In this document: positions 1,237 through 17,603 of the stretch, in pieces
How positions within the stretch are numbered: the stretch's first letter is position 1
Layout of the letters: every line of letters begins with the position of its first letter
Virus record (IMG/VR): IMGVR_UViG_2534682108_000015
Location: 1-17,603 of that record
Source of the DNA: a virus
Taxonomy: Duplodnaviria > Heunggongvirae > Uroviricota > Caudoviricetes
Length of the DNA stretch: 17,603 bases
Strand: one strand, 5' to 3'
Program-made: the position numbers and the translations under genes
Notes under the pieces: model-generated
Told to the model about the DNA's origin: nothing
The model's database searches: none
What the model saw: the letters and a program-made list of their open reading frames with translations, nothing else

Positions 1237-1394
1237 CCAGAGCGTAATCATATCTGCCAGTCCGCTGCGGATACCTTGTGTACTGGGTTTTTAGCCAGAC
1301 TACGTTAACCGGTAGCTTCAGTATTTGGGGTGTCGGCAGGAGTTTGATGGTTTATTGGGTTACTGTGGGACTAAGGATGTAGGGATGCCAATCG

Positions 1395-2528: not shown

Positions 2529-2737
2529 TATTTCGCCTGATGCCAACTCAAAATCTTTTTTGTCGCATCCATTGTGGATTAATATTCAGAGGTAAGGGGT
2601 ATCTGCGGAATTTATATTTTGCAGGATGAGTATACAATACATGATATAACATCTGTTTTTGGCACAGAGCATATAGTCAGATTATGTTTAGTTCTGTGCC
2701 ATAGATGGATATTATCTCACCTCTTGGCTAACTCTCA

Positions 2738-2932
2738 TTACTCAATAACTCCAGTAAATCTGTATATTTTGCGTGATGCCCATTTATTTGGGCAGGATTT
2801 AATATCAGGATCTGGAAAATCTGGCCTGTATTTCTGGCCTGTCCTCCTGTTTACGCTGTTCCAGCGAAGCACCGTCGATATTGAAACGCCACAGAATTCG
2901 GCGACTTGTTTTGTTGTCATTAAGTTGCTCAT
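2738..2932 (-). CDS. AlpA-family HTH DNA-binding protein, excisionase-like (putative Xis)
   Basis: 64-aa ORF with the HTH segment TTKQVAEFCGVSISTVLRW followed by an FPDP...KW-type wing. Strong SD (GGAGG) 8-9 nt upstream of the ATG at 2930-2932. Preferred over the overlapping plus-strand ORF 2619-2984. Confidence 0.5.
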   Translation of the reverse strand: MSNLMTTKQVAEFCGVSISTVLRWNSVNRRTGQKYRPDFPDPDIKSCPNKWASRKIYRFTGVIE

Positions 2933-2966
2933 TGCTACCCCTCCAGCGGTTGTTCAGTTGAAAGAC

Positions 2967-3503
2967 TCATGCGCATGTGCGTAACTCCGATAACTCGTTA
3001 AAGCGTTCCATAAACATCCCGTAGGCATGGCCTGGCGACAGTGGAATAACTTTGAACATCTCTGTGGCAGAGATGCCTTCCAGTACTGGCCAGAAAGAGC
3101 CATCATCAAGCCCGAGATCGCGGCGTTCGGTTGCCAGCATGATGAGATCGGCATATTTCACGGGTGTACTCATAACCGGGGGTAACCCGTATTTCTCACG
3201 GATTACGGCGTCTATTTTTTCTTCCATCCGTTTATAGTCAGGAAGAAGGCGTTTCAGTGGTGCGGGAATGTCCTGGCAATACGCTTCTGTTGCATCATGC
3301 ATTAACGCTTCAAAAGCAAATTCCTGCGGCACCAGCTGGCTGCAAAGCACCGCATGCTGGGCGACACTGTAGAAGTGTGAAAGATGTCCTGCAAAGCGAC
3401 AGATATTTGAAAGGGAAACCGCGATATCGTTAATCACGATGTCGTCTTTATTTATCTTGTCATAATAAAAATGCTTCCCGGAAAAAGTTTTAATAAATGA
3501 CAT
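2967..3503 (-). CDS. yfdR: HD-domain phosphohydrolase (5'-deoxynucleotidase-like), YfdR-like, 178 aa
   Basis: HD-domain signature (H...H...LMHDATEAY...D). The internal ATG at 3501-3503 has a GGAG SD 7 nt upstream and gives 178 aa; the ORF-track 199-aa version lacks an RBS. Symbol assigned from the 120/274/178-aa size and order match to the CPS-53 yfdP-yfdQ-yfdR block as recalled, not from an alignment. Confidence 0.65.
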   Translation of the reverse strand: MSFIKTFSGKHFYYDKINKDDIVINDIAVSLSNICRFAGHLSHFYSVAQHAVLCSQLVPQEFAFEALMHDATEAYCQDIPAPLKRLLPDYKRMEEKIDAVIREKYGLPPVMSTPVKYADLIMLATERRDLGLDDGSFWPVLEGISATEMFKVIPLSPGHAYGMFMERFNELSELRTCA

Positions 3504-3631
3504 TTCGTTCTCCACTTTATATGCGCTGCACCGCGCTGAATTCGGGTAAAAGTAAGCCCTCACCATCCGGCGATTATTGAGTTAATTACGTTTCCATAAA
3601 TGCCCCCGCAGGGGCATTTGCAGTAATGAAA

Positions 3632-4456
3632 TCAGGCGGTGAAAGTACCAATAAAGGTTTCTACTTTGCTGTCTTTGAATTTCTCAACAAGCAGATCACG
3701 AAATTCGTTAGCCATTTCCTCCTGCACTGCTTCCAGCTGAATAATGCGCAGAACCAGTACAGGACGATCGCCAGTGATAATGCTGAGGCGTAATTTAAAC
3801 GGACGTTCTTTCAGGCCTTCAAACGGAACGCATTTAAATTCAAATGCCACTGGCATAATGTCTTTGGTTTTCGCTTCGACAGACTCCATCAGGGAGCGTT
3901 TGCCGCTGAAGTCATTGTCTTCAAAATCAGCGGTCTGGTTTGCTTCAATCGTGATTTTACGGACTGCCGCAGCTGCTTTTGTTGCCTGAATAGCGTCACC
4001 ATTAGCATCAAAGCCCACAAGGTAGTCGGCCCAGTCTTCAATCCATTCTGCCAGTGACTTCTGGGAGTTACGCTCGCCATTAACAGACAACAGAGCAGAG
4101 AACGGTGCTGTCTTTTTCAGTTTGAGAGTGGCGGTGTTATCTGCGTGACCTGGTTCATCAATAGTACCCAGATTAAGCACACTGACGGCACGCATATTAT
4201 CAGCATCGATAAAGCAGCGGGTGCCCTCATCTGCAAGATCTTTAGAATAACGGGTAAAGTCATCGATGCTGGTAGTGGAAAGCGCACCACGGAAACGGAA
4301 GCGATTTAAATTAAATTTTTCCAGATCATGAATGCGGAAGTTCTCAGGCAATGCCACAGCATCGGCACCAATCTTACTGATAATTTCATTAACACTCTGA
4401 GCAGAAATAAGGGCATGGATTTGATTAATTGCGGTTGCGTCTAAGTTCTGAGACAT
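3632..4456 (-). CDS. yfdQ: YfdQ-like phage early protein (DUF2303-type), 274 aa
   Basis: 274-aa ORF with a GAGGA SD 8 nt upstream of the ATG at 4454-4456. Length and position between the YfdP-like and YfdR-like genes match the CPS-53 early block as recalled; not verified by alignment. Confidence 0.6.
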
Positions 4457-4521
4457 AATAAGTCCTCACTATATAAAGATATTCAGTGATGAGATAAATA
4501 ATCAGTTTATTAAAAACGATA

Positions 4522-4884
4522 TTAACGACCAGCTGCGCGGAGTTTTCCGTCAGGTTCACCGGCAAGAGTCAGTAATTGTCCCTGGTCTTCCTGCAGAATA
4601 GTCAGGCGACCACCGCGATTGACATACATCGGCGTTTCGGTGGTGTCTTCTTCGGAAATTTTCCCGCGGTTAGTTGGGCGAACATATGAGAGTTTGTGTT
4701 TGATTTTCACACGGTTCTCATCAAACGGTTCGATTTCCAGATTGAGTGAGACCTTCCCTTTGGTTTTCGTGTTCATCACACCGGAAGCGACTTCACTTAG
4801 AACTGCGCCGATTTTGGTTTCAAATACGCCGCCGTCCAGCTCCCCGATAAATGCCTGCACATCAGTACTGCGGTCACTAGCCAT
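4522..4884 (-). CDS. yfdP: YfdP-like small phage early protein, 120 aa
   Basis: The internal ATG at 4882-4884 is preceded by GAGGAG 7 nt upstream and gives 120 aa. The upstream 77 codons of the ORF-track version (to 5115) are R/C/T/P-rich, overlap a large inverted repeat, and look non-coding. Confidence 0.55.
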   Translation of the reverse strand: MASDRSTDVQAFIGELDGGVFETKIGAVLSEVASGVMNTKTKGKVSLNLEIEPFDENRVKIKHKLSYVRPTNRGKISEEDTTETPMYVNRGGRLTILQEDQGQLLTLAGEPDGKLRAAGR

Positions 4885-4932
4885 TTTGCTGCTCCTCATC
4901 ATATCGACCCTGCAAGGTCGGTTAGTTTCTCC

Positions 4933-5021
4933 ACAAAACAGAGAAGAACACCTGCGGTGGCAGCCGCCCGGATGGATTGGGTTATGAGCCCGTCGTCCGG
5001 TGATGCTCTTCTCTGTTTTGT
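4933..5021. repeat. Perfect 15-bp inverted repeat (ACAAAACAGAGAAGA, 4933-4947, and its reverse complement TCTTCTCTGTTTTGT, 5007-5021) enclosing a 59-nt GC-rich loop; candidate RNA stem-loop in the leader of the leftward early operon
   Basis: Verified base by base. A boxA-like CGCTCTTTTTA lies immediately 5' on the minus strand (complement of 5021-5031). Confidence 0.5.
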
Positions 5022-5534
5022 AAAAAGAGCGGTACCAGCCGGAAGCAAGTGTACAAACTGGTACCTCCAAAGCAGTGGCTGTTGTGGTGGGGTTGTCACT
5101 CAGGCGTATGGTCAACCTGACAATCCGGTGTCCTCAACGGGGAAAGAGTAACCCCGCCATACTTACCGCCGCGCCATTTCGCGGATTACCACAACGCTGA
5201 GAGCACTTAGCCAGTTACGGCACCACACTTTGTCGCGGCTCCATAAATGCCCTCATCGTTGCACCCTGGTCTCTTCCCAGGCGTCAAACCGAATCGCCAC
5301 GCTGGTTAGGCGTCTTATCAGCATCATCATTGACTTGCACATTCCGGCTACCTGGTTTGTTTGCCCGAGCAAGGAGTGGATTGTCCCCTTTAACGTCCCC
5401 AGACCGCTAACGACGCATGTGCCATACGCCGTGTTACAACCAAATTTTGTTAGTACCTTGTTTGTTGGTCTGGAAAGAAAGATAAAATGAAGTTGCGCAT
5501 TATGCAAGTGTTTTATTGCGAGATGTGCAATTTA

Positions 5535-5555
5535 ATAGGTAATGAAAAGCCACCT
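5535..5555 (-). terminator. Intrinsic terminator downstream of the cI-like gene
   Basis: On the minus strand, GCCACC-CGAA-GGTGGC (6-bp GC stem, tetraloop) followed by TTTTC, about 30 nt after the cI stop. Confidence 0.55.
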
Positions 5556-5585
5556 TCGGGTGGCTAATTGATGAGGAGGTAAGGG

Positions 5586-6278
5586 TTAATTGTGTCGCTT
5601 AAGGGTTTGTGACTGGCTGATTAAGACCTTTCCAAAGACCATAAACCGGTGTTCATTTTCGCTGGTAATTCCCCATTCACGGTAAATCTGGTTATCAGAA
5701 ATCACCAGTAGTTTGTCAGGTATCATTTGCAGTCGTTTGACATAAATTTTATCATCAAAACCAAATACATAGATACCATCTCCATCAAACTGATTGATAC
5801 TGACATCAACGAAGATGAGATCTCCTGGCTCAATGGTTGGACACATACTGTCCCCACGAACGTTGATAACTTTAATGTGATTGGCTGGTCGTCCGCCAAA
5901 CATCGATACAGCATTATCAGTTCTGTATTCAATGGCATGAATCACATCAATGACATCACCGCCCTGGATAAGGCCATTTCCCGCACTGGCACTGACATCC
6001 AGCATTTCAATACGGAATACATCCTTCACCTGCGCAACATCCTCACTAATACTGTTTTTACATACAGTATTACTTTTGACGTCTGAGGTAAAGAGATCAG
6101 CAATATCAACACCTAAGCTCCTGGCAATATTACTCAGGGCTTGTTCAGTGAATTGTTTCTGCTTACCTGTTTCCAGGCGCGAGATATTCGCCGCATCCAC
6201 TCCTATTGCTTCAGCTAGATCGGCGATTTTCATGTTCTTCGCCTGGCGAAGTTGTCTGACTCGATTTCCTATGTTCAT
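5586..6278 (-). CDS. cI: CI-type prophage repressor (N-terminal XRE HTH plus C-terminal S24 LexA-like autopeptidase domain)
   Basis: 230 aa. HTH: MKIADLAEAIGVDAANISRLETGKQ. Peptidase motifs GDSM (Ser) and KR (Lys) are in the C-terminal half. Divergent from the cro-like gene. Confidence 0.9.
   Translation of the reverse strand: MNIGNRVRQLRQAKNMKIADLAEAIGVDAANISRLETGKQKQFTEQALSNIARSLGVDIADLFTSDVKSNTVCKNSISEDVAQVKDVFRIEMLDVSASAGNGLIQGGDVIDVIHAIEYRTDNAVSMFGGRPANHIKVINVRGDSMCPTIEPGDLIFVDVSINQFDGDGIYVFGFDDKIYVKRLQMIPDKLLVISDNQIYREWGITSENEHRFMVFGKVLISQSQTLKRHN
6050..6069. promoter_or_regulatory. Consensus-grade LexA (SOS) box TACTGT-N8-ACAGTA inside the cI coding sequence
   Basis: Plus strand TACTGTTTTTACATACAGTA; all 12 outer positions match the E. 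coli SOS-box consensus. It lies in the linker-coding region (codons about 70-76) of the repressor gene. Confidence 0.5.
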
Positions 6279-6375
6279 GCGTTTATTACATTTCTTTATT
6301 GCGCGTTAATCAAATCAACTTGCGCAAAATATTTGCGTGAAATAATATGATCATCACGCAATATGTGGAGGTTAT
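6279..6375. promoter_or_regulatory. cI-cro intergenic control region: divergent PRM/PR-like promoters with repeated TTGCGC-type operator half-sites
   Basis: TTGCGCG (6299), the palindrome TTGCGCAA (6320-6327) and the inverted pair TTGCGTGA (6334-6341) / TCACGCAA (6353-6360). Candidate PR: -35 TTGCGC (6320-6325), 17-nt spacer, -10 TAATAT (6343-6348). cro SD GTGGAGG at 6365-6371. Confidence 0.6.
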
Positions 6376-6636
6376 ATGCAATCACCATTACGGAATGTGC
6401 GTAAGGCGCACGGATTTACTTTGCAGCATGTTGCTGCTGGCGTTCAGGTCAATCCAGCGACGCTGAGTCGTATTGAAAGACTGGAACAAATTCCATCTAT
6501 CGATCTTGCAGAACGTCTGGCCAATTTTTTTAAGGGTGAAATCAGCGAAATGCAGATTCTTTATCCGGCACGTTTTCAATCTAGCCAAAACCAGAATGGG
6601 TTTAAACCACAGGAACAGGAGGTAAGCCGTGGGTAA
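6376..6636 (+). CDS. cro: Cro-like HTH regulator
   Basis: 86 aa with an XRE-type HTH (FTLQHVAAGVQVNPATLSRIER), divergent from cI, good SD. Its stop overlaps the next gene. Confidence 0.75.
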   Translation: MQSPLRNVRKAHGFTLQHVAAGVQVNPATLSRIERLEQIPSIDLAERLANFFKGEISEMQILYPARFQSSQNQNGFKPQEQEVSRG

Positions 6637-7180
6637 TCATCACTGGAAAGTGGAAAAACAGCCTGAGTGGTACGTGAAAGCTGTCAGAAAAACCATCGCG
6701 GCGTTGCCAGGGGGTTACGCTGAAGCTGCTGAGTGGCTGGATGTTACAGAGAACGCTTTATTCAACCGCCTTCGTGCAGATGGCGATCAGATTTTCCCGC
6801 TGGGATGGGCAATGATTTTACAGCGTGCTGCTGGCACTCACTACATTGCGGATGCTGTCGCACAGTCTGCTGGTGGGGTGTTTGTATCGCTTCCTGAAAT
6901 TGAGGAAGTAGAGAACGCAGATATAAACCAGCGCCTGCTGGAAGTCATCGAACAGATCGGGAGTTACTCAAAGCAGATTCGTTCGGCAATCGAAGATGGG
7001 GTAGTGGAGCCACACGAGCAGACAGCAATTAATGATGAATTGTATCTGTCAATTTCGAAGCTCCAGGAGCATGCGGCACTGGTCTACAAAATTTTCTGCG
7101 CTCCAGAAAAGAGTGACGCCCGCGAGTGTGCAGCTCCGGGCGTCGTGGCGTTTTGTGTCTGTGGAGAAACTAACGCATGA
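6629..7180 (+). CDS. CII-like phage regulatory protein (CP76-type)
   Basis: 183 aa, GTG start at 6629 preceded by AGGAGG (about 6616-6621). Positioned immediately after cro. Family assignment by resemblance to phage CII/CP76-type regulators; not verified. Confidence 0.65.
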   Translation: MGNHHWKVEKQPEWYVKAVRKTIAALPGGYAEAAEWLDVTENALFNRLRADGDQIFPLGWAMILQRAAGTHYIADAVAQSAGGVFVSLPEIEEVENADINQRLLEVIEQIGSYSKQIRSAIEDGVVEPHEQTAINDELYLSISKLQEHAALVYKIFCAPEKSDARECAAPGVVAFCVCGETNA

Positions 7181-7505
7181 ACAGTTTAACGGCAAATAAC
7201 CGTTTGTCGCAACAGCTGGTGGTCAGTGTCGCTGCACACCTGTTGTTACGGCATGAATGCAGATTACCAAATCACCTGGCTGTAAGTAACCACAGAGAAC
7301 TTTACCTGACTGTGGGGGGCGAGTTGTGCAGGAACTTAACCGCTGGTTTCGTGACGGAAGAGGACTTTATGTTCATGTTATTCGTTGGGAGCCAGAAACA
7401 CAGCGCGTTATCTATCTTCGCAAAGACTACCCGCATGAGTGCTTTAGTCCTTTATGGAAATTCAGGCGTGATTTTGTTGAGTGTGAAGGACCACCAGCAC
7501 ATTGA
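7177..7505 (+). CDS. Possible small gene of about 108 aa, readable only if a frameshift occurs at a G6 tract (7314-7319); as sequenced, the frame beginning at ATG 7177 instead runs on to 8328
   Basis: ATG 7177 overlaps the CII-like stop (ATGA). After the G6 run, a different frame encodes a protein-like 59-aa segment (VQELNRWFRDGRGLYVHVIRWEPETQRVIYLRKDYPHECFSPLWKFRRDFVECEGPPAH) ending at TGA 7503-7505. The interval is not a multiple of 3 as sequenced. Confidence 0.3.
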
Positions 7506-7590
7506 TTCTGCCATTCCGGGACGTTACACTGTTCAGGCACCTTATAAAGCGGGTGCCGGGCGTGGAAACCCGGAATTCACCAAAGCGCAC

Positions 7591-7613
7591 AACCGCGCTC
7601 TTGCGGTTTTTTT
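7591..7613 (+). terminator. Intrinsic terminator-like hairpin with T-tract (tR-like) between the small ORF and rha
   Basis: AACCGC-GCTCTT-GCGGTT stem-loop followed by TTTTT (7609-7613). The loop contains the boxA-like CGCTCTT. Confidence 0.4.
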
Positions 7614-7782
7614 GTGTCATGAGCAGCATTACGCCCAAATTATGGTGGGGCGTGCAGGGCCAACTTCGGTTGGGCCGGGTTCTTTGGTGACCGGTATTTC
7701 CACCCCTGTACGTCTCACCACCAATAAGGTCGTGGAAAGCCTTGGTGGTGAGTTATTAAAAATCACCAAAGAGGCTGCCATC

Positions 7783-8328
7783 ATGGCTACGATCCCAACC
7801 CTCACTCAACCTGAAATTGCCATCGTTGATGGTCAGGCTGTTACTTCATCCCTGGCTGTTGCCAACTTCTTCTCCAAACGTCATGACGATGTACTGAAAA
7901 AGATCCGCACGCTTGAATGTTCCGCATCATTCACTGCCCGCAATTTTTCGGTGAGTGATTACACCGATTGCACAGGCCGCAAACTACCTTGCTATCAAAT
8001 AACCCGCGACGGCTTTGCGTTTCTTGCTATGGGTTTCACGGGTAAACGTGCTGCCCAGTTCAAAGAGGCATACATCAATGCCTTTAACCAGATGGAGAAA
8101 CAGCTTTCAAAGCCCGCTGTACCGAGCGACGTTGCACATAATGCCAGCGTTCTCTGTTCCTACATTTCATCAATTCATCAGGTCTGGCTGCAGCAGCTTT
8201 ATCCTATGTTGGCAAAAGCCGAATCTCCGCTGGCTGTTAGCTTATATGACTATATTAATGATGCTTCGGCGCTGGCCTGCCTCATAAATTTGTCGCTGAA
8301 CCCTTCAGAGGTAAGGGGGCGCAAATGA
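7783..8328 (+). CDS. Rha-family phage regulatory protein
   Basis: 181 aa from ATG 7783 with SD AAAGAGG 8 nt upstream. N-terminal Rha-type motif (SLAVANFFSKRHDDVLKKIR). The 383-aa ORF-track version is treated as an artefactual N-terminal extension. Confidence 0.8.
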   Translation: MATIPTLTQPEIAIVDGQAVTSSLAVANFFSKRHDDVLKKIRTLECSASFTARNFSVSDYTDCTGRKLPCYQITRDGFAFLAMGFTGKRAAQFKEAYINAFNQMEKQLSKPAVPSDVAHNASVLCSYISSIHQVWLQQLYPMLAKAESPLAVSLYDYINDASALACLINLSLNPSEVRGRK

Positions 8329-8549
8329 TCCGGAATATTTTCAAACGTTTTACCAATCAGACTTTCCGTTGTCCTCGTCCGGGTCAGTGGTACACCACGC
8401 CTGCAGGGCATGTTCTACGTGTTAGCCTGGTTGACCGTGAATGTCAGAAGGTGATTTGTGAACCGCTGGGCCGTAATTACCGCGTCAGTATGCCGCTTAT
8501 AGCCTTTCGCTCCGGAAAAAACATGAAGCATCTCGGAGGTGCAGCATGA
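8325..8549 (+). CDS. Small hypothetical protein (74 aa), translationally coupled on both sides
   Basis: ATGA overlaps with the rha stop (8325-8328) and with the replication-gene start (8546-8549). Contains three Cys and a basic N-terminus. Confidence 0.5.
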   Translation: MIRNIFKRFTNQTFRCPRPGQWYTTPAGHVLRVSLVDRECQKVICEPLGRNYRVSMPLIAFRSGKNMKHLGGAA

Positions 8550-9364
8550 GTATGGAGCTGATGGTTAAAGCGATGAAAATTCGAGTGGGTAATCCATTGC
8601 GAAAACTGGTTCTGATCAAGCTGGCTGATAATGCCAGCGATCAGGGTGAGTGCTGGCCCAGCTACCAGCATATTGCTGACCAGTGCGAGATTAGCAAACG
8701 TTCTGTGATGAATCATATTGCGGCCCTTTGTGAGTCCGGGCTGGTAAAAAAAGTCACCCGGAAAGGTGAAAAAGGTAACTCAAGTAATATCTATCTCCTT
8801 CATCTTGATGGTGCAGGAGATTCACTAGGGGGTAGTGCAAATAATTCACTATCTGGTGCAGCAAATTCACTAGGTAGTGCAGGAGTTGCACCAGGGGGTA
8901 GTGCAGGAGATTCACCCAGAACCAGTCACTCTTTTGAACCAGTCAAAGAATCAGTCAATGAACCAATAGCTGTTGGTGCATCAGTTGATGAGTCCGTGCG
9001 AGTTCGTTCAAACCGACCGGAATACTCTCCGGAGTTTGAGCAGGCATGGCTGGCCTATCCCAAACGTGCTGGTGGCAATTCAAAATCTGCAGCCTTCAAA
9101 GCTTGGAAAGCCCGTTTGAATGAGGGGGTAAAACCCGAAACCATGCTGGAAGGTGTGAAACGCTACGCGGGCTGGGTATCTGCGATGGGTAACAGCGGCA
9201 CACAATTTGTGAAACAGGCTGTCACGTTCTTTGGTCCGGATCGTCATTTCGAAGAATCCTGGGAAGTTCCTGCGGTATCTGCAGCCAGACGCGAGGACCC
9301 GTACTTCAAAGCCAGTTACGACAACGTGGACTACAGCCAGATCCCGGCAGGATTCAGGGGGTGA
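8546..9364 (+). CDS. Replication initiator / replisome organiser (N-terminal HTH, Gly/Ser-rich linker, DnaT-like C-terminal domain)
   Basis: 272 aa with GGAGG SD. Iteron-like DNA repeats are embedded in the linker-coding region, as in ori-lambda within gene O. The C-terminal region (YPKRAGGNSKSAAFKAWKARL...) is typical of phage DnaT-like replication proteins. Confidence 0.8.
   Translation: MSMELMVKAMKIRVGNPLRKLVLIKLADNASDQGECWPSYQHIADQCEISKRSVMNHIAALCESGLVKKVTRKGEKGNSSNIYLLHLDGAGDSLGGSANNSLSGAANSLGSAGVAPGGSAGDSPRTSHSFEPVKESVNEPIAVGASVDESVRVRSNRPEYSPEFEQAWLAYPKRAGGNSKSAAFKAWKARLNEGVKPETMLEGVKRYAGWVSAMGNSGTQFVKQAVTFFGPDRHFEESWEVPAVSAARREDPYFKASYDNVDYSQIPAGFRG
8811..8917. repeat. Putative origin iterons: 20-24-bp-spaced repeats with internal dyad symmetry (CACTA...TAGTG) inside the replication gene
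   Basis: GTGCA recurs at 8812, 8836, 8856, 8877 and 8901; TTCACTA at 8821, 8845 and 8866. CAGTCA triplet repeats (8923, 8941, 8953) follow. Confidence 0.6.
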
Positions 9365-9366
9365 TT

Positions 9367-9855
9367 ATGAGTCTTTTGAATGAAGTTCAGAAATTCATTG
9401 AAGCCCATCCGGGGTGTACTTCCGGAGACATTGCGGATGCTTTTGCAGATTACTCACGGCAGCGCGTTCTGCAGTCAGCAAGCAAGTTACGTCAGAGTGG
9501 GAGTGTGGCTCACCGTTGTGAAGGAGATACACGCAGACATTTCCCGCGCCTGACTGAGAGAGCGCAGGGGCCGGAACCACAACCAGTTCGTGAAACCAGA
9601 TCTGTGCGCAATTTCTATGTCGGCACTAACGATCCACGGGTGATTTTGTGCCTGACCCGCCAGGCTGAAGAACTGGAGTCCAGGGGCTTATACCGTCGTG
9701 CTGCAACGGTGTGGATGGCGGCATTCCGAGAAAGCCACTCCCAGCCAGAACGAAACAATTTTCTGGCTCGTCGTGAGCAGTGCTTACGGAAAAGCAGCAA
9801 GCGTGCTGCATCGGGTGAAGAGTGGTATCTGTCAGGGAATTACGTGGGGGCTTAA
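9367..9855 (+). CDS. PerC/Pch-like transcriptional regulator with an N-terminal winged-helix-like extension
   Basis: C-terminal segment AEELESRGLYRRAATVWMAAF...RREQCL resembles the PerC family. Start taken at ATG 9367 (GGGGG SD); the ORF track begins at GTG 9361. Confidence 0.5.
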   Translation: MSLLNEVQKFIEAHPGCTSGDIADAFADYSRQRVLQSASKLRQSGSVAHRCEGDTRRHFPRLTERAQGPEPQPVRETRSVRNFYVGTNDPRVILCLTRQAEELESRGLYRRAATVWMAAFRESHSQPERNNFLARREQCLRKSSKRAASGEEWYLSGNYVGA

Positions 9856-10181
9856 TGACGACGTTAACTCAATGCCAGCAGCAGGTGCTGGATATGCTGA
9901 TTTCTTATCAGAAAGAACGTGGTTTCCCGCCAACCAATCAGGAGGTGGCAACCATGCTGGGATACCGTTCGGTGAATGCAGCGGTGGAGCATCTTCGCGC
10001 ACTGGAGAAAAAAGGCGTCATCACGATAAAGCGTGGCGTGGCCCGGGGTATCACGCTTCATACCACAGTGAAGGATGACGACAGTGAGGCAGCCGGGATT
10101 ATCCGCGCACTGCTTGCCGGTGAGGAAAACGCCAGACTGCGTGCAGTCCACTGGTTACATAAGAGGGGCCTGAAAGTATGA
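9855..10181 (+). CDS. LexA N-terminal DNA-binding-domain protein lacking the S24 peptidase domain
   Basis: 108 aa from ATG 9855 (TAATG overlap with the upstream stop). MTTLTQCQQQVLDMLISYQKERGFPPTNQEVATMLGYRSVNAAVEHLRALEKKGVI aligns by eye with the LexA winged-HTH; there is no Ser/Lys peptidase region. Confidence 0.75.
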   Translation: MTTLTQCQQQVLDMLISYQKERGFPPTNQEVATMLGYRSVNAAVEHLRALEKKGVITIKRGVARGITLHTTVKDDDSEAAGIIRALLAGEENARLRAVHWLHKRGLKV

Positions 10182-10567
10182 AGCTGATCCTGCCTTTTCC
10201 GCCCAGCGTGAACACGTACTGGCGACACCCCAACAAAGGGGCGTTTGCTGGTAAGAGCCTGATAAGCGCGGCGGGGCGAAAATTCCAGAGCGCGGCGTGT
10301 GCAGCAATAGTTGAGCAGTTACGTCGTCTGCCAAAACCAACGTCGGCACCTGCTTCAGTGGAGATCGTGTTGTTTCCTCCGGATAACCGGATCCGCGATC
10401 TGGACAACTATAACAAGGCGCTGTTTGACGCCCTGACCCACGCGGGGGTGTGGGAAGACGACAGTCAGGTGAAAAGAATGCTGGTGGAGTGGGGACCGGT
10501 TATCCCGGAAGGGAAGGTCGAGATCACTATCAGTAAGTACGAGAAAACGGCGGGTGCAGCCGCCTGA
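10178..10567 (+). CDS. rusA: Holliday-junction resolvase RusA
   Basis: 129 aa with the RusA hallmark (LPFPPSVNTYWRH ... RDLDNYNKALFDALT ... DDSQV). ATGA coupling to the upstream gene and SD AAGAGGGG. Confidence 0.9.
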   Translation: MKLILPFPPSVNTYWRHPNKGAFAGKSLISAAGRKFQSAACAAIVEQLRRLPKPTSAPASVEIVLFPPDNRIRDLDNYNKALFDALTHAGVWEDDSQVKRMLVEWGPVIPEGKVEITISKYEKTAGAAA

Positions 10568-10586
10568 TTAAGAGGAGAAACGAAGT

Positions 10587-11429
10587 ATGAATAATCTGAT
10601 GGTCATTGATGGTATTGAAGTTCGTCGTGATGCTTATGGGCGTTACAGCCTGAACGATCTGCATCGCGCAGCAGTAGCATCTGGTGCAAATGCCAGAACC
10701 AAGGAGCCGGGAAAGTTTCTTTCCAGCCAACAGATTACTGAGCTGGTTCAGGAATTGATCGATACCCAAAATCTGGGTGTCGGTTCATTCAATGAAACTA
10801 CCCAAAATTTGGGTAGTAAACCTGTCAGTAAAATAGAAGGGCGGAATGGCGGAACATATGTCTGTAAGGACCTGGTGTATGCCTATGCAATGTGGATCAG
10901 CCCGTCATTCCATCTGAAGGTGATCCGCACTTTCGACATGGTAACCAGCGCACCGGAAAAATTATCCTGGCAGGCTGCTGACAAGATGCAGGCTGGCGTG
11001 ATTCTGCTGGACTTTATGCGCCGGGAGTTAAATCTGTCTAACTCATCAGTGCTTGGTGCCTGTCAGAAACTCCAGGAGGCTGTTGGCTTACCGAATCTGG
11101 CACCGCGCTATGCCATTGATGCTCCTGCTGACGCGCCTGATGGCTCAAGCCGCCCCACGCTGTCACTGAGTGCATTGCTGAAGCAGTATGGTATCCGCCT
11201 GACAGCTAATCAGGCATATCACCAGATGGTGAAGCTGGGGATCGTCGAGCAGCGCGAACGATACAGCCGTACCGCGATTAACAACATCAAAAAATTCTGG
11301 TCACTGACAGCGAAAGGCTGCATGTTCGGCAAGAACATCACCAGTCCCGCAAATCCGCGCGAGACGCAGCCGCATTTCTTCGAATCCCGATTCCCTGAGC
11401 TGTTAAAGCTGCTCGATACCGTTCATTGA
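10587..11429 (+). CDS. KilA-N domain protein (antirepressor-like)
   Basis: 280 aa. N-terminal KilA-N-type region (DGIEVRRDAYGRYSLNDLHRAA ... YVCKDLVYAYAMWISPSFHLKVI). SD AGAGGAG. Confidence 0.8.
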   Translation: MNNLMVIDGIEVRRDAYGRYSLNDLHRAAVASGANARTKEPGKFLSSQQITELVQELIDTQNLGVGSFNETTQNLGSKPVSKIEGRNGGTYVCKDLVYAYAMWISPSFHLKVIRTFDMVTSAPEKLSWQAADKMQAGVILLDFMRRELNLSNSSVLGACQKLQEAVGLPNLAPRYAIDAPADAPDGSSRPTLSLSALLKQYGIRLTANQAYHQMVKLGIVEQRERYSRTAINNIKKFWSLTAKGCMFGKNITSPANPRETQPHFFESRFPELLKLLDTVH

Positions 11430-11430
11430 G

Positions 11431-12426
11431 GTGACCGTGAGAGCACTACTGACCCCTGAAATTGCCCCGCGTATGGGGATCGTATTGTTCAGGCCAGGTT
11501 CAGAGCTGATGCCCCTGTTTATGCAGGGGCGTGTCCTGCTGGAGCCTGAGCCGGAACGTTATTCATCTTTCGCCAGTGGTGCTGTTCCGGCGGCATCACA
11601 ACCGCTGGCGGATGATCCTGCCGTTCGGGCCGTGTTCCGCAATGAGGCAGTGATCCGTCGTGCTGGTGGCGTGGAATGTCTTGAAAGCTGGTTACTTCGT
11701 GAAAAAGGCTGCCAGTGGCCTCATTCCGACTGGCACAGCGAGAACATGACCACAATGCGTCACGCGCCGGGCGCAATCCGTCTGTGCTGGCACTGCGATA
11801 ACCAGCTGCGCGATCAGTTCACGGAACGGCTGGAATCAATGGCAACGGATAACTGTGCCCGCTGGGTGTTGTCTGTCGTGCGTCGGGATCTCGGTTTTGA
11901 TGACAGTCACGTTGTGACAATGCCGGAACTGTGCTGGTGGCTGGTTCGTAATGATCTGGCGGATGCCTTACCTGAAAGTGCAGCCCGTAAGGCACTGAGA
12001 TTACCGAAGCCTGTTGTGCCGTCTGTCACCCGGGAGAGTGACCTTGTTCCTTCGGTTCCGGCCACCAGCATCATCCAGAATAAAGCGAAAAAGGTGCTGG
12101 CGCTGAAAGTGGATCCGGAGTCGCCGGAGTCTTTTATGTTACGCCCAAAACGTCGCCGCTGGGTTAATGAAAAGTACACGTGCTGGGTTAAGACACAGCC
12201 GTGTGCATGTTGTGGAAAGCCCGCTGATGATCCCCACCACCTGATAGGTCACGGTCAGGGTGGAATGGGAACAAAAGCGCATGACCTTTTTGTGTTGCCT
12301 TTGTGCAGAAAGCATCACGACGAGCTGCATGCGGATACCGTGGCATTTGAAGAGATGTATGGCTCCCAGCTGGAGCTGATATTTCGTTTTATCGATCGTG
12401 CGTTGGCAATTGGTGTGCTGGCCTGA
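11431..12426 (+). CDS. DUF968-family protein with a C-terminal HNH-like Cys/His motif
   Basis: 331 aa. C-terminus CACCGKPADDPHHLIGHGQGG...CRKHHDELH. GTG start as in the ORF track; alternative in-frame starts exist. Confidence 0.7.
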   Translation: MTVRALLTPEIAPRMGIVLFRPGSELMPLFMQGRVLLEPEPERYSSFASGAVPAASQPLADDPAVRAVFRNEAVIRRAGGVECLESWLLREKGCQWPHSDWHSENMTTMRHAPGAIRLCWHCDNQLRDQFTERLESMATDNCARWVLSVVRRDLGFDDSHVVTMPELCWWLVRNDLADALPESAARKALRLPKPVVPSVTRESDLVPSVPATSIIQNKAKKVLALKVDPESPESFMLRPKRRRWVNEKYTCWVKTQPCACCGKPADDPHHLIGHGQGGMGTKAHDLFVLPLCRKHHDELHADTVAFEEMYGSQLELIFRFIDRALAIGVLA

Positions 12427-12443
12427 TTTTGTGGAGAAGGTTG

Positions 12444-12806
12444 ATGCGTGATATTCAGATGGTTCTTGAGCGTTGGGGGGCATGGGCGGCGAGTGATAGT
12501 TCTGGGGTAGACTATTCGCCTATAGCTGCTGGGTTTAAAGGGCTTCTTCCCTATACAAGCAAAACACGTCAGGCTTGTTCAGATAGTGATGCATTAATTA
12601 TTGAAGGTTGTCTTGCTCGTCTAAAGCAAAAAAGACCTGAAGAACACTCGCTTCTTGTTGCCCATTACCTATACGGTATCTCTAAAAGAAAGCTCGCTAA
12701 AGCTCGCAAAAAGGATGAGAAAATAATACGCATTGAGATACAGATGGCTGAGGGATTTATAGAAGGTTGTCTAGCTATTCTAAATGTTAGCTTAGATATG
12801 GATTAA
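12444..12806 (+). CDS. Q: Late-gene antiterminator Q (QuuD / phage-21-82 type)
   Basis: 120 aa from ATG 12444 (SD GGAGAAGG). The N-terminus MRDIQMVLERWGAWAA...AAGFKGLLP is characteristic of the small Q family. Confidence 0.8.
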   Translation: MRDIQMVLERWGAWAASDSSGVDYSPIAAGFKGLLPYTSKTRQACSDSDALIIEGCLARLKQKRPEEHSLLVAHYLYGISKRKLAKARKKDEKIIRIEIQMAEGFIEGCLAILNVSLDMD

Positions 12807-12849
12807 TATCTTGGTTTGGGTAAGCAGGTGTGCTTGCACCTGCTTAATA

Positions 12850-13302
12850 TTATATGTGGGGTAATATCCAGTTTATTTTCCGCCAGGTACTTGCAAATGA
12901 AACTATTGATACGATCAGGGTCGAGAAACCATATAAGGTTAGGGCGAAATCAAGTCTTACAGAGGTAATGGTGATTTTTTCATTTATAAACATTGCTATC
13001 AGCGGGAAAATACATGCTAATATTAAGGTGACTCCCGTAGATAACAGGTTATGAATAATTTTAGGTAAAATCTTGTTTTGTTTTAAAGCAAAAATAATTC
13101 CATCAGTGCTTGAACTTGCAGAACTGAAGATGGAAATAGCGGCCAATACAAAACCAAACAAAATGCCTGCCACCGTAGATAACACTCCGGCTGTACTTAA
13201 GATATCAGAGTGAGCCATAGGCGCTAGGTATTTCCCAAGCACCCAAGCTAACAGCCCACTGATAACTATGTTAATTAAAACTTTAATAAGCATAATCATC
13301 AT
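12850..13302 (-). CDS. Small four-TM membrane protein (RexB-like architecture); second gene of the AT-rich accessory cassette
   Basis: 150 aa with four clear hydrophobic helices (about residues 3-23, 36-60, 88-108, 120-140). AT-rich. Starts 14 nt after the upstream gene's stop, with AAGGA before the start cluster. Confidence 0.6.
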   Translation of the reverse strand: MMIMLIKVLINIVISGLLAWVLGKYLAPMAHSDILSTAGVLSTVAGILFGFVLAAISIFSSASSSTDGIIFALKQNKILPKIIHNLLSTGVTLILACIFPLIAMFINEKITITSVRLDFALTLYGFSTLIVSIVSFASTWRKINWILPHI

Positions 13303-13316
13303 CCTTAAAAATAAGA

Positions 13317-14249
13317 TCAGATTTCATATTGCTTTAAATACTGACCATGTTCAATTTTAGCACTTATCAAGGCAGTACGCACATCTGTTTCTTTTGCGTA
13401 GCCATCTTTTGTGTTAATGTTTTTTTCACTGATCAGAACTTGATTGAGAAGACTCCTTGAATGAGTATTTTTAGGTTCAGTGACATTAGCTTTACGTAAT
13501 AAGTGAGGAACTTTTTCTATTAATTCCTTTATTCCACTTTTTACTTCATCACTGAGATAACCACGGATTAATTTACGTTGCGATGCTCTACCTCTAAGTG
13601 ATAGTTTTAAATGCGAACCGCCCATCCCAGCCATCATTTCAATCATACTTTTGGAAAATGAATTCGAAAGGTCATAATCCGTTGCGCTAAAATCACGTGG
13701 AGCGGCGAGTGTAATTTCACAGCTACGTAAAGTGCTTCCTGTTTCAAGTAGTTCTTTTACACTTTCTTTTTTCCAAATTGCCTCAAACGCTACAGGTTTG
13801 TTTTCTTCAGAAAAATTGAATAAAAGAAATGCTAAATCGGAAGCTTTAGGTCATAAATGATTTTGAGATAAAACAAGAATGTCTTTCTTATAGTAGTAAA
13901 TAAAATAAGTGCGTTCGACTATATATTTTTTATCATCTAACGGAATATTGTGCTCATCCCAATTTTCATCACCAATATAAGGTAAGTGGAAACCATCACG
14001 AGAGCATGATAGATAACCAAAATAGAACTCCGCCTGTGCGTCTTTTTCTAAGAATACAATCTTTAATTTTTTCTTATCAAACTCAGCGGTATAAGAATTT
14101 TGCGAAGGTGTAACAATGGTTGTATACATTTTGTCAAATGCAAGTTGTGCATTTGATGTAGTTGACTTCGTTCCTGAGGAGCTTTGGAAGAAACCGATAC
14201 GCATTTTTTTTTGTTTAGTTAGTGGCGCGGAAGTGGCTGTAGTAGTCAT
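13317..14249 (-). pseudogene. Cytoplasmic protein of about 311 codons split by one in-frame TGA (13851-13853); first gene of the accessory cassette; RexA-like by position and size only
   Basis: ORFs 13851-14249 and 13317-13646 are in the same frame. The 68 codons between the TGA and the next ATG contain no stop and no ATG/GTG/TTG, verified codon by codon. AT-rich. Confidence 0.55.
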
Positions 14250-14548
14250 TAAAATTACCCTTTATTATCCTTTTGAATCAATGGGTTGTGATTTATTAAT
14301 GATCCTGGGTTCGTTGCATATGCATAATCTATCAAAAAAAACTTACGCGGTCCGCATTTTCTCGTTTACTGTGTTAAGAGTGGTTACTTCGCCACACAGC
14401 TTAAACCCGCCGTCGAGCGGTTTTTTTGTACCTGTAAACCTGGTGCAGTACAGTAAACACGCTGGTGGTCGTGAATACTGACTTTTTATCTTGCTGGCTT
14501 TTTAGACAAGAGTTATTGGTATGTCATGTTAACCAGAAGGGAAAAGAC

Positions 14549-14752
14549 ATGCTAAAACAGCAAGATATGACAGAAATCGCCGCCGCAGTCCTTCACTTCT
14601 TACCTGCTGACAAGTGGGTAACGCCACGCATGATGACGAGAACTACCGGAGTAAGCGAAGCCCGGTGCCAGTTAATACTGACTCAGTTAGTTCTGGCGGG
14701 TCTGGCGAAGGATAACGGCGGGTACGGGAATAAATTCAGACGCTGCCAGTAA
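14549..14752 (+). CDS. Small winged-helix DNA-binding protein (67 aa), divergent from the accessory cassette and upstream of the methyltransferase fragment
   Basis: ATG 14549 with SD AAGGGA 6 nt upstream. HTH-like segment TPRMMTRTTGVSEARCQLILTQLVLAGL. Confidence 0.5.
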   Translation: MLKQQDMTEIAAAVLHFLPADKWVTPRMMTRTTGVSEARCQLILTQLVLAGLAKDNGGYGNKFRRCQ

Positions 14753-14902
14753 TGGCGGTTTCCTGCTGTGAAAATGGGCGGCTGGTGGGTGTTGGTAGCA
14801 CCTGCCAGCCATTCGCTCATGCTTACTGGTCACAAGCGAACCACGGCCCACTGCTTTAGCGCAAAAGCAGAGTGAGCCTACCAGAGTTACGCTTACTGAT
14901 CC

Positions 14903-15310
14903 ATGAAAAATACTGTAAAAATAAACAGTGTTGATTTAATCAACGCTGATTGCCTGCATTTTATTCAGTCCCTGCCTGATGATTCCATTGACCTGATAGT
15001 TACCGATCCGCCGTACTTCAAAGTGAAGCCCAACGGTTGGGACAATCAGTGGAAAGGGGACGAAGATTACCTGAAGTGGCTGGACCAGTGTCTGGCTCAG
15101 TTCTGGCGGGTGCTGAAACCTGCCGGAAGTCTTTACCTGTTCTGTGGACATCGCCTGGCATCTGATATTGAAATCGTGATGCGTAAACGTTTTAATGTGC
15201 TGAACCATATCATATGGGCGAAGCCGTTCAGACCTTGGAGCGCATGCTGTTGTTGCTCACTGGTATTACGAACGGTTTGCTCACGGGGATGTACACATAT
15301 TAATTGTTGA
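14903..15310 (+). pseudogene. DNA methyltransferase (N6A/N4C, DPPY type), 5' fragment only
   Basis: N-terminus carries the catalytic DPPY motif (IVTDPPYF) and IIWAKP; the target-recognition and FxGxG (AdoMet) regions are absent. The reading frame degenerates after about residue 115 and runs into AT-rich DNA. Confidence 0.6.
14911..14930. promoter_or_regulatory. Strong LexA (SOS) box-like palindrome at the 5' end of the methyltransferase fragment
   Basis: TACTGTAAAAATAAACAGTG: CTGT-N8-ACAG with an AT-rich spacer and 11 of 12 outer consensus positions. Overlaps codons 3-9 of the ORF. Confidence 0.45.
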
Positions 15311-15318
15311 TGTTAATA

Positions 15319-15660
15319 TTACGTCATGTTATTAATACAAAATTGCAACGCATCATTCAAAGTATTATAATTATCATTTGTTGCATTTATTATGCCAACA
15401 TTCCTTGTTGGTCTTCCTTCCGTTGAATATTCTATCCAGAATGAGCCGGTGTATTTTGACATTCTATATGTTGCGAATTCTTTTGCATTAATTGGTGGTT
15501 TGGTGCCGTTGAGATCCATTATATAACCACTTTCTTGAATTGTCTTAGAAAGGCAATTGATTATTTCATTTGTCGATATTTCACTGTCGATTTGAGGATG
15601 ATTCACAATTAGCCCCATGCAGAGGATGCTTGAAATTATTATAAAAATATTTTTTATCAT
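15319..15660 (-). CDS. Small AT-rich secreted or membrane-anchored protein (113 aa) with an N-terminal signal-like hydrophobic segment
   Basis: MIKNIFIIISSILCMGLIV... followed by a polar N/T/S-rich body. Very AT-rich, with AT-rich 5' flank 15661-15960. Confidence 0.5.
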   Translation of the reverse strand: MIKNIFIIISSILCMGLIVNHPQIDSEISTNEIINCLSKTIQESGYIMDLNGTKPPINAKEFATYRMSKYTGSFWIEYSTEGRPTRNVGIINATNDNYNTLNDALQFCINNMT

Positions 15661-16010
15661 GATGTCTGTTTTTGTGAATTTTTAGATAGAATGTCTGCTG
15701 TGGAAATATGTATACCTCTTGTGCTCATTTATTTCAATAGATAGTTGAGCACTCATTGTGCTAATGGAAGAAGTTTTTTAATATGGAGTATCATCAAAAT
15801 CACACAATAGTGATTAATATTGCTATTAGATAAAGAAGTATCGCTAACTTTGATTTTGTTGAATTTGTTTTTAATAAAAGTTAGTGTGGTTTATATAGCA
15901 GGCATATGCATGCTGTTTTTAAAGAAACTTATTGCCCCTTTAGCCCTAATGGTCAGAGCGAGAGGTTAATAACCGCCAGGTCGCCGGTTCAAACATGGCA
16001 GGGGCACGAA

Positions 16011-16087
16011 GCGCTGTTAGCTCAGTTGGACAGAGCAATTGCCTTCTAAGCAATCGGTCACTGGTTCGAATCCAGTATGGCGCACCA
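16011..16087 (+). tRNA. tRNA-Arg (anticodon UCU)
   Basis: Manual cloverleaf: acceptor GCGCTGT/ATGGCGC, D-arm GCTC/GAGC, anticodon stem ATTGC/GCAAT with loop CTTCTAA, T-arm ACTGG-TTCGAAT-CCAGT, discriminator A, encoded CCA. Confidence 0.9.
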
Positions 16088-16088
16088 T

Positions 16089-16163
<75 letters not shown>

Positions 16164-16636
16164 TAGAGGATTATGGGACAGTATAGTGAGCATTTTTCTG
16201 CGTTACCTTTCATCGGTAAAAATAAGCATACAACAACTATTTATGCTGGCATTAGCTATGATAGTTATTGGTTTTCTCGGAATGTGTTTATTTGTTTACT
16301 ATATTCTTATCGATAACTGATATTTTTGATATTAATCCGGAGTGGTACAAACAAAAATATGAATTCGCTATGGAATCAGGATGTGTAATAAAAATAATAG
16401 TCACTAAGTTATAGTTTTTTTAAAATGTTAAAAACATCACATTTCATTATGTTGGGCACTGGAGAATACCCAGTCGTTTTGTTAAAAATAATTACGCATG
16501 GTGAATCCCCCTAAGCGGAGGGGCAATCAGCAACTGGTGTTTTGTCACCGACCCTTATCCTTTCTGTGCGCAGGTGCTGATACTGAACTCACCGGGAGGC
16601 ACCCGGCACCATGCAAAATTGTCTACACTACCACTG

Positions 16637-16665
16637 TAAAAAGCCCCTCTCCGGAGGGGCTTTTC
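16637..16665. terminator. Bidirectional intrinsic terminator
   Basis: GCCCCTC-TCCG-GAGGGGC (7-bp GC stem) flanked by an A-run (16637-16642) and TTTTC (16661-16665). Confidence 0.6.
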
Positions 16666-16672
16666 TATGGGC

Positions 16673-16700
16673 AAAAAAAAGCCCGCAGTGAGTGGCGGGC
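16673..16700 (-). terminator. Intrinsic terminator for leftward transcripts
   Basis: GCCCGC-AGTGAGTG-GCGGGC preceded on the plus strand by A8 (16673-16680), which is T8 after the hairpin on the minus strand. Confidence 0.55.
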
Positions 16701-16764
16701 GGGTCGCATGAATATACATCAGGTATTTTTATTATCGTGTTCTGATTTCTACCATCTGTGATAA

Positions 16765-16795
16765 GGCTGCGCAACTGCGCGGCCTTTTTCGTTTT
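16765..16795 (+). terminator. Intrinsic terminator-like hairpin upstream of the esterase gene
   Basis: GGCTGCGC-AACT-GCGCGGCC followed by TTTTTCGTTTT. Confidence 0.45.
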
Positions 16796-16883
16796 GCGGG
16801 CTGCGGTTCTCCTCTTTTGATTCTCCGTGTAGCCGGACCGTGGCCCGCAACTGTTGAGGAAAATCCCGGAAAGGGGAGGAATA

Positions 16884-17603
16884 ATGGCATTTAAACACTA
16901 TGACGTGGTCAGGGCGGCGTCGCCGTCAGACCTTGCGGAGCGACTGACACAAAAACTGAAGGAGGGCTGGCAGCCGTTTGGCAGTCCTGTGGCTATCACT
17001 CCTTATACACTGATGCAGGCTATTGCCGCAGAGGGTGATGTGACCACGCCTGTGGTTGTGCCCGACACAGGGGCTGGTGGCTCTCCGGGAGTGGCTATCA
17101 CTGAACCGGAGTATTACTACGTTATTCCCCTGGCCGGGCAGTCGAACGGTATGGCCTATGGTGAGGGGCTTCCTCTGCCGCAGACCTATGATCGCCCTGA
17201 CTCCCGTATTAAGCAGCTGGCCCGTCGCAGCACTGTGACGCCGGGTGGTGATACCTGTGCATACAATGACGTTATTCCGGCAGACCACTGTCTGCATGAT
17301 GTTCAGGACATGAGCGCACTTAACCATCCTCATGCAGACCTGAGTAAGGGCCAGTACGGGACTGTTGGTCAGGGGCTGCATATTGCCAAAAAACTGCTGC
17401 CTTATATCCCGCAGAATGCCGGGATACTTTTGGTGCCCTGTTGCCGTGGCGGGTCTGGTTTAACCGTGGGTAATGACGGCACGTTCAGCGAAACGTCTGG
17501 CGCATCGGCAAATTCAGCCCGCTGGGGAATGGGTAAACCGTTGTATCAGGATTTTCTCTTCCGTACAAAAGCGGCGCTGTCGAAGAACCCGAAAAACAGG
17601 CTT
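16884..17603 (+). CDS. DUF1737 / SASA-domain sialate O-acetylesterase (NanS-p-like), 3'-truncated by the window edge
   Basis: ATG 16884 with strong SD AAGGGGAGGA. Open through base 17603 (240 codons, verified stop-free). Starts MAFKHYDVVRAASPSDLAERL (DUF1737-like) and contains the SASA hallmark LAGQSNGMA. Not in the ORF track because no stop falls within the window. Confidence 0.7.
   Translation, partial: MAFKHYDVVRAASPSDLAERLTQKLKEGWQPFGSPVAITPYTLMQAIAAEGDVTTPVVVPDTGAGGSPGVAITEPEYYYVIPLAGQSNGMAYGEGLPLPQTYDRPDSRIKQLARRSTVTPGGDTCAYNDVIPADHCLHDVQDMSALNHPHADLSKGQYGTVGQGLHIAKKLLPYIPQNAGILLVPCCRGGSGLTVGNDGTFSETSGASANSARWGMGKPLYQDFLFRTKAALSKNPKNRL

Follow-up and report, generated by a model that had tools for sequence, protein, structure and literature searches.

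RexAB of phage lambda was the first abortive-infection system discovered, and to our knowledge both the trigger of Rex and the way in which RexA activates RexB are still unknown. Here we analyze a two-gene cassette that is likely a divergent module of the RexAB type, an AT-rich moron carried by a prophage between the antiterminator gene Q and the late and lysis genes. It occupies 12850-14249 on the minus strand of a 17,603-nucleotide (nt) stretch of caudoviral DNA (IMG/VR virus record IMGVR_UViG_2534682108_000015, positions 1 to 17,603; below, the window). A prophage in E. coli O157:H16 strain Res13-Lact-PEA12-26, whose integration site adjoins yjjG, is 100% identical to the whole window. As in lambda, the gene for a cytoplasmic protein (A) comes first and that for a membrane protein (B) second, in a single unit; the lambda proteins have 279 and 144 amino acids (aa), those of the cassette 310 and 147 aa.

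The likeness to lambda goes beyond layout, with a colinear profile alignment, a four-transmembrane (four-TM) topology with both termini inside (N-in/C-in) and a His-x-Asp (H-x-D)/TM2 motif found in the cassette family as well; both are prophage-borne, and some relatives of the cassette stand right after cI. Unlike lambda RexAB, the cassette falls outside the Rex models of Pfam and PADLOC (A belongs to Pfam DUF6731 and B to no family), it is a separate opposite-strand unit between Q and the late genes whereas lambda rexAB is in the cI operon, and gene A is interrupted in this copy by a nonsense mutation. We infer a defence function for the module from lambda RexAB and from the P. putida pair RexABpp.

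By the count of a 2026 paper, just five Rex-like systems have been described. RexABpp of P. putida prophage P1 (PP_5643/PP_5644) combines a RexA-like protein with a four-TM partner, both genes being needed, and defends against phage by damaging the membrane (Sci Rep 2026, PMC12894663); it is a comparably distant pair that has been experimentally validated, and it lies near a Cro/CI-type repressor gene. A search with the PP_5643 primer sequences (PMC12894663 supplement) found no match in contigs of viral or metagenomic origin, and none of the fetched proteins matched by its terminal peptides. The actinobacteriophage pairs (Sbash gp30/gp31, CarolAnn gp44/gp43 and Butters gp30/gp31), likened here by description, are prophage two-gene units that couple a RexA-like cytoplasmic protein with a membrane protein and whose position relative to the immunity repressor varies, as it does in the cassette family. 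They differ in their Gram-positive hosts, in the greater length of their RexA-like proteins (337-372 aa) and, for Butters, in reversed roles. Kiwa is also a two-gene defence system, with a small multi-pass KwaA (four-TM) and an about 310-aa cytoplasmic KwaB (DUF4868), in the opposite gene order to the cassette. Kiwa identity was rejected, there being no PADLOC match for it and no Kiwa chain among the structural matches listed.

Gene A and RexA

A reading of the letters alone, the original prediction, had pointed out an AT-rich minus-strand two-gene cassette at 12850-14249, convergent with Q. Both points were confirmed: GC content is 35.4% in the cassette, compared with 45.7% in the window, 52% at 8546-12806 and 48.7% at 14430-15250, and 43 nt separate B from Q (12441-12806, plus strand). 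A frame of about 311 codons followed 14 nt later by a 150-aa four-TM protein had been described; frames and helices stand, while B is likelier to have 147 aa and the gap to measure 23 nt.

Neither protein had been credited with a known domain, which holds for B, without a family, and fails for A. With its interrupted codon 133 filled, A (13317-14249, minus strand; intact form of 310 aa, WP_001700324.1) matches Pfam DUF6731 (PF20505) at E 2e-10 and 41.1 bits against a cut-off of 27, and the intact protein P0001 scores 45.4 bits. PADLOC, NCBIfam and PHROGs scans returned no functional name for A or B, and a profile search of both against PDB sequences found nothing useful.

Structure prediction with Foldseek, proposed as a check with the original prediction, placed RexA first. 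An AlphaFold2 model of intact A was made from an alignment of 53 homologues (predicted local distance difference test (pLDDT) score 82.6), and its leading match in the PDB was lambda RexA (E 2.9e-7, probability 1.00), with RdgC next. The RexA structure paper lists the same relatives for RexA itself (PMC11077077). E. coli RdgC and the kinetochore proteins CHL4/IML3 (CENP-N/L) come without a membrane partner or phage context, and their structural scores are far below that of RexA, which is the best structural match of A by two methods. The modeled protein has the RexA fold, a split globular domain together with a dimerisation domain, that is a feature of RexAB-type systems.

Profile comparison points the same way. 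An exhaustive profile search of A gave 188 relatives (about 190 clusters at 50% identity), and 93 of the 102 that were tested are DUF6731 proteins. When these 102 were aligned by hhalign with 31 RexA proteins, the families matched at 75% probability and E 2.4e-5 over 252 colinear columns, end to end (14-293 against 2-270), with a score of 42.2 where reversed and column-shuffled controls reached at most 21.6. A conserved Gly-Pro is aligned between the two families, and its glycine is the very codon lost to TGA in this copy. None of the 102 proteins matches the Pfam RexA model PF15969. The A family has many conserved basic residues, which for DNA binding is only suggestive. Model and profiles support A as a remote homologue of RexA, and the RexA/RexB-like layout that the original prediction had noted, while asserting no sequence-level homology, is thereby borne out and raised to remote homology.

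In Escherichia phage vB_EcoS-733R5 (ON470608.1) a DUF6731/RexA-like homologue at 2556-3497 of its locus (L060) is labelled 'portal (connector) protein', which looks like a mis-annotation.

Gene B and RexB

Gene B (12850-13293, minus strand) encodes a four-TM inner-membrane protein of 147 aa, RexB-like (WP_000905933.1). Its start is likelier the ATG at 13293 than the first ATG at 13302, which would give 150 aa, because 13293 is the RefSeq start, gives the length of nearly all homologues and has an AAGGA Shine-Dalgarno sequence 8 nt upstream. That sequence lies in the spacer between A and B (13294-13316), which makes the gap 23 nt.

The AlphaFold model of B (pLDDT 80) has four long helices (2-22, 28-59, 75-102 and 114-146), and hydropathy also supports four transmembrane helices. 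By hydropathy and charge, B and RexB are both N-in/C-in, and they are of the same length; in each, the first periplasmic loop is short and contains a His-x-Asp, and the second, cytoplasmic loop is basic. Conservation within B is highest in the core of TM2 and the loop preceding it. A broad B profile, including the partners of distant DUF6731 genes, matched the RexB alignment in hhalign at E 1.7e-4 to 4.8e-5 (probability 49-68%, score 31-34, controls at most 16.3), and the aligned region covers H-x-D, TM2 and loop 2 at equivalent positions. A B-family member from a Vibrio phage scores 100 bits against the B-family profile and matches the RexB model of PADLOC (E 1.6e-4), which neither its reversed sequence nor any of nine local shuffles did. 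Two further B-family members have colinear matches to Pfam RexB that stay below threshold. Homology of B to RexB is likely on these alignments, though not established: of the structure and profile checks, hhalign beats its controls, but Foldseek against BFVD gave no RexB.

The proton channel family MotA/TolQ/ExbB (PF01618; as in Zorya ZorA) was rejected for B: over the TM2-TM3 core the match is at noise level (E 0.13; 12.5 bits, cut-off 22.9), and only 1 of 21 family members has it. A genuine RexB homologue of Klebsiella phage ST101-KPC2phi6.1 (MK448231.1; H41), 80% identical to lambda RexB, is labelled 'biopolimer transporter' (ExbB/TolQ-like).

Conservation and distribution of the pair

Both genes have full-length homologues of constant length in many genera, 58 for A and 97 for B, and A and B are therefore real genes. 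In all the enterobacterial loci that were read, from prophages of E. coli, Klebsiella, Yersinia and Proteus, a B-like gene comes directly after the A-like gene, and E. coli alleles of the pair at 46% identity also keep the A-B order; two loci that have no called B gene do encode B. The pair is present in the sequenced phages cdtI and vB_EcoS-733R5, and in all related loci A and B overlap or are separated by short gaps. We also examined 19 distant DUF6731 loci, two of which are cut by a contig end. In 16 of the 17 complete ones (hosts include Halomonas, Enterobacter, Mariprofundaceae and Thiohalocapsa) a B-like open reading frame (ORF) of 144-175 aa with 3-4 TM helices adjoins or overlaps A, and these partner ORFs match the B profile. 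The pair has thus been kept in all complete loci examined except one, which answers the question of conservation raised with the original prediction. It ranges from Enterobacterales to Halomonas, Vibrio and Zetaproteobacteria and is always prophage-borne.

The slots it occupies include the interval from Q to the lysis genes, the tail-gene region, a Mu-like head region and the position directly after a cI-like repressor gene. The last arrangement, which is that of lambda rexAB, was seen in Proteus (L015) and Vreelandella (L044), one of which also has a divergent cro-like gene; in another Proteus prophage a single small gene separates cI from a true rexAB pair downstream. In the Mu-like prophages L051 (Parathalassolituus) and L053 (Amphritea) the pair is found among the head genes, immediately upstream of the gene for the Mu I protease and, in L051, also downstream of a Mu F-like gene, an unusual position for a moron. 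A PM2-like (Vinavirales) Vibrio element, phage 10N.286.54.F4_PE001 (PQ189356.1; L039), has an A-B pair beside its integrase gene (1389-2896), and its B protein is the family member closest to RexB (PADLOC RexB, E 1.6e-4).

Within E. coli, a cassette allele detectable at the DNA level is found in 96 of 5,426 complete genomes, and about 2,900 further genomes have the same Q and right flanks with different cargo. One such cargo, at 3138-4157 of the locus from E. coli MS1657 (L023), encodes a hypothetical protein of 339 aa (WP_000357056.1) for which PADLOC gave no match. In E. coli, the majority of lambdoid prophages of this type have cargo other than the cassette in the slot. Since so many genomes share the flanks and carry other cargo, the cassette is, to judge from these comparisons, a mobile moron at a hot spot for cargo between Q and the right flank. 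On a broader scale we lean, by a modest margin, to the view that DUF6731 with its four-TM partner forms a large branch of the Rex superfamily that has gone unrecognised in Gamma- and Zetaproteobacteria, is carried by Mu-like and lambdoid prophages as well as the PM2-like element, and moves between moron slots, among them the one beside cI where lambda has rexAB.

The nonsense codon of gene A

The 311 codons translated from 13317-14249 include a single in-frame TGA, at codon 133 (13851-13853, minus strand), where comparison with L002 gives the intact codon as GGA (Gly133). Because of that TGA, RefSeq shows A in this strain as two proteins, one of 132 aa ('DUF6731 family protein') and one of 109 aa (hypothetical). 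The same allele is found in 17 other complete E. coli genomes at 99.0-99.4% identity. Strain NS-NP030 was the one intact strain compared codon by codon; it has GGA at codon 133, with plus-strand C, not A, at 13853, and a B protein identical to that of the window. The other allele carriers were judged by RefSeq annotation, which gives A as one DUF6731 gene, with a length of 310 aa in the strain that was inspected. Gly133 is invariant across 53 homologues, and hhalign pairs it with the conserved G109-P110 of RexA.

UGA followed by C is a leaky stop context. That the TGA serves for programmed read-through or encodes selenocysteine was rejected, since NS-NP030 has GGA there, for an invariant glycine, and RefSeq gives a single A gene elsewhere; read-through would put another residue at this glycine. 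The same prophage is damaged elsewhere. Its DNA methyltransferase gene (14903-15247, plus strand) is shortened, being 1053 nt in related prophages, and the gene for its terminase large subunit, outside the window in the same prophage (L001:26151-27812), has an internal stop. These two lesions imply that the prophage is decaying, and on this sequence evidence we regard it as cryptic, with the nonsense mutation of A fitting that state. The TGA, which the original prediction had already mentioned, is a mutation, and the copy of A in the window is a pseudogene and probably inactive; truncated after residue 132, ahead of the dimerisation domain, the system is predicted to be inactive.

Proposed mechanism and alternative explanations

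Intact A would be a cytoplasmic RexA-fold protein, related to RdgC, that most likely dimerises, binds DNA non-specifically and senses an infection cue. B would most likely be the effector: triggered by A, it would depolarise or permeabilise the membrane, stop growth and abort the superinfecting phage. In the present copy the change from GGA to TGA at Gly133 truncates A and would thus break the sensor, in a system predicted to be inactive; B is intact. The original prediction had suggested an undescribed membrane-effector defence module; the evidence supports a Rex-type pair, and so a divergent Rex branch and not a new kind of system.

A number of results weigh against calling this cassette a RexAB-type module. 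Neither A nor B reaches the Rex thresholds of Pfam (PF15969/PF15968) or PADLOC (PDLC02339/02340), and a PADLOC check, one of those suggested with the original prediction, thus came back negative; as positive control, lambda RexA and RexB score E 1e-97 and 8.5e-92 with Pfam and 9e-110 and 9e-61 with PADLOC. The narrow enterobacterial A profile gave an insignificant hhalign result with RexA or its family, the narrow B profile did not detect RexB or its family, and the Rex signal arose only once both families had been widened with distant members. For B that signal is limited to about 42-60 columns of membrane helix, at the probability of 49-68% given above. Global template modelling scores (TM-scores) between A and RexA are low (0.34-0.38), which on our analysis probably reflects a different hinge angle between the domains; hinge motion between the RexA domains has been shown (PMC11077077). 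The repressor gene (5586-6278) is far from the cassette behind Q, without the position for co-transcription with cI that lambda has, and given this distance expression in the lysogen as in lambda should not be assumed. The Rex-like pair of Butters has reversed roles (PMC12894663), and the assignment of sensor and effector may not transfer. The pseudogene state of this copy belongs here too, as does the searchable literature, in which we found no mention of DUF6731 or of these accessions.

It is improbable, in our estimate, that the pair mainly serves the prophage's own transition from lysogeny to the lytic state, or induction, in place of exclusion. Homology to RexA would bring with it the second role of RexA, DNA binding that biases the bistable switch, which lambda RexA does independently of RexB (PMC11077077), and the relatives directly after cI would suit that role. 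Yet here and in most enterobacterial relatives the cassette occupies a variable moron slot far from the immunity region, and strict co-conservation with a membrane partner is unneeded for a function in the switch only; the two roles are, moreover, not mutually exclusive. Roles reversed as in Butters gp30/gp31 (PMC12894663), with A the toxic or antiviral effector and B sequestering it, would be consistent with a copy in which A is knocked out while B is intact and identical, as in loss of a toxic component. One pseudogene among 18 allele carriers says little, however, the membrane protein is the effector in lambda, Sbash, CarolAnn and P. putida (PMC12894663), and conservation of B peaks at the TM2 core and preceding loop, as for an active channel or effector; we hold such a reversal to be unlikely.

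Slimmer still is the prospect that the likeness to Rex is an ancient shared fold only; A would be a DNA or recombination protein like RdgC, and B an unrelated membrane protein, which might then, at a similarly low probability, be an accessory protein of superinfection exclusion, lysis timing or transport. The identity of A to RexA, only about 12%, would suit this reading, and so would the misses by the Pfam and PADLOC Rex models, the lack of RexB among the Foldseek results for B, and the position of the cassette next to the lysis region. We prefer the divergent RexAB-type pair: the A and B profiles align with RexA and RexB well above their controls, and the two genes are kept together across the complete loci.

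In the searchable literature we found no earlier link of the DUF6731/B sequence family to Rex; the kind of system, RexAB, is known. Tying DUF6731 and an unnamed four-TM family to Rex gives a domain of unknown function a testable function, in a branch that the PADLOC Rex models (DB v2.0.0) do not detect. If the branch is functional, the five described systems would grow into a widespread defence family missed by current detection tools, and many natural variants, including this natural knock-out of the sensor, would be at hand for finding the Rex trigger. Diverged sensor/effector pairs also serve comparative work on mechanism, and in lambdoid prophages of E. coli the junction between Q and the lysis genes, a slot that takes up such modules as cargo, may repay mining. 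For this genome itself the message is a modest one, a pseudogene copy in a decaying prophage.

Cassette boundaries and prophage setting

The map of the prophage runs from the integrase gene through the immunity region, replication genes, RusA, KilA-N, DUF968 and Q (plus strand) to the A-B cassette (minus strand); the window has three AT-rich islands, the cassette among them. Q, of the PF06530 type by RefSeq annotation, forms the left edge of the cargo slot. Between the stop codons of Q and B the terminator scan found a hairpin at 12821-12846, on both strands, of 11 bp on the plus strand (-17.0 kcal/mol, z -3.3) and 10 bp on the minus strand (-15.4 kcal/mol, z -4.6). A U-tract is absent from it on both strands, and it may act as a bidirectional transcript end or as a stabiliser.

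On the other side, 14250-14333 (minus strand) is the cassette-specific upstream region, the expected site of the A-B promoter, bounded by the right end of the cargo at 14334. The promoter scan there gave as its best candidate a 9/12 match (ATCACA-17-GATAAT, 14292-14264), and no confident promoter.

The conserved right flank (14334-14430, plus strand), common to prophages with differing cargo, was delimited by blastn, homology running from 14334 with L023 and covering 14372-14425 at 98% with L004. It carries a small terminator-like hairpin followed by T7 (14409-14428, terminator scan), a weak fold; the terminator-like hairpins at 14345-14357 and 14409-14421 are no better than shuffles. The Q system may have its late-promoter/terminator region in this flank. 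When prophages that differ in cargo are compared, shared homology stops at 12802, next to the Q stop codon (12804-12806), and restarts at 14334 or 14372; because of this, a Q-specific promoter/qut element could sit beyond the cassette as likely as before it. Plus-strand promoter scans at both candidate late-promoter sites found none that was convincing. Q-antiterminated late transcription may run antisense through the cassette, as the original prediction had it.

Other features of the window

Directly after the integrase gene, in a typical moron position, an AT-rich gene (1395-2528, plus strand; about 32% GC) encodes a 377-aa hypothetical protein with no PADLOC match and a faint Pfam hint of NACHT N-terminal helical domain 2 (E 0.058). 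Two Rfam matches on the plus strand, isrK (7537-7613, 67 bits) and, beside it, C4 antisense RNA (7638-7725, 83.6 bits), both lie inside the ORF of a Rha family regulatory protein (7177-8328), and the two RNAs may form an antisense control element of the P1/P7 type for an antirepressor. A gene at 15319-15660 (minus strand), AT-rich and adjoining the truncated methyltransferase gene, encodes a 113-aa hypothetical protein with no family match and looks like a second cargo insertion. Further on, just 3' of the tRNA-Arg/tRNA-Gly genes (16011-16163) and 5' of a nanS-p-like esterase gene, a full-length match to the small RNA STnc100 (16466-16672, plus strand, 123 bits) may mark a second late-region leader in a mosaic prophage.
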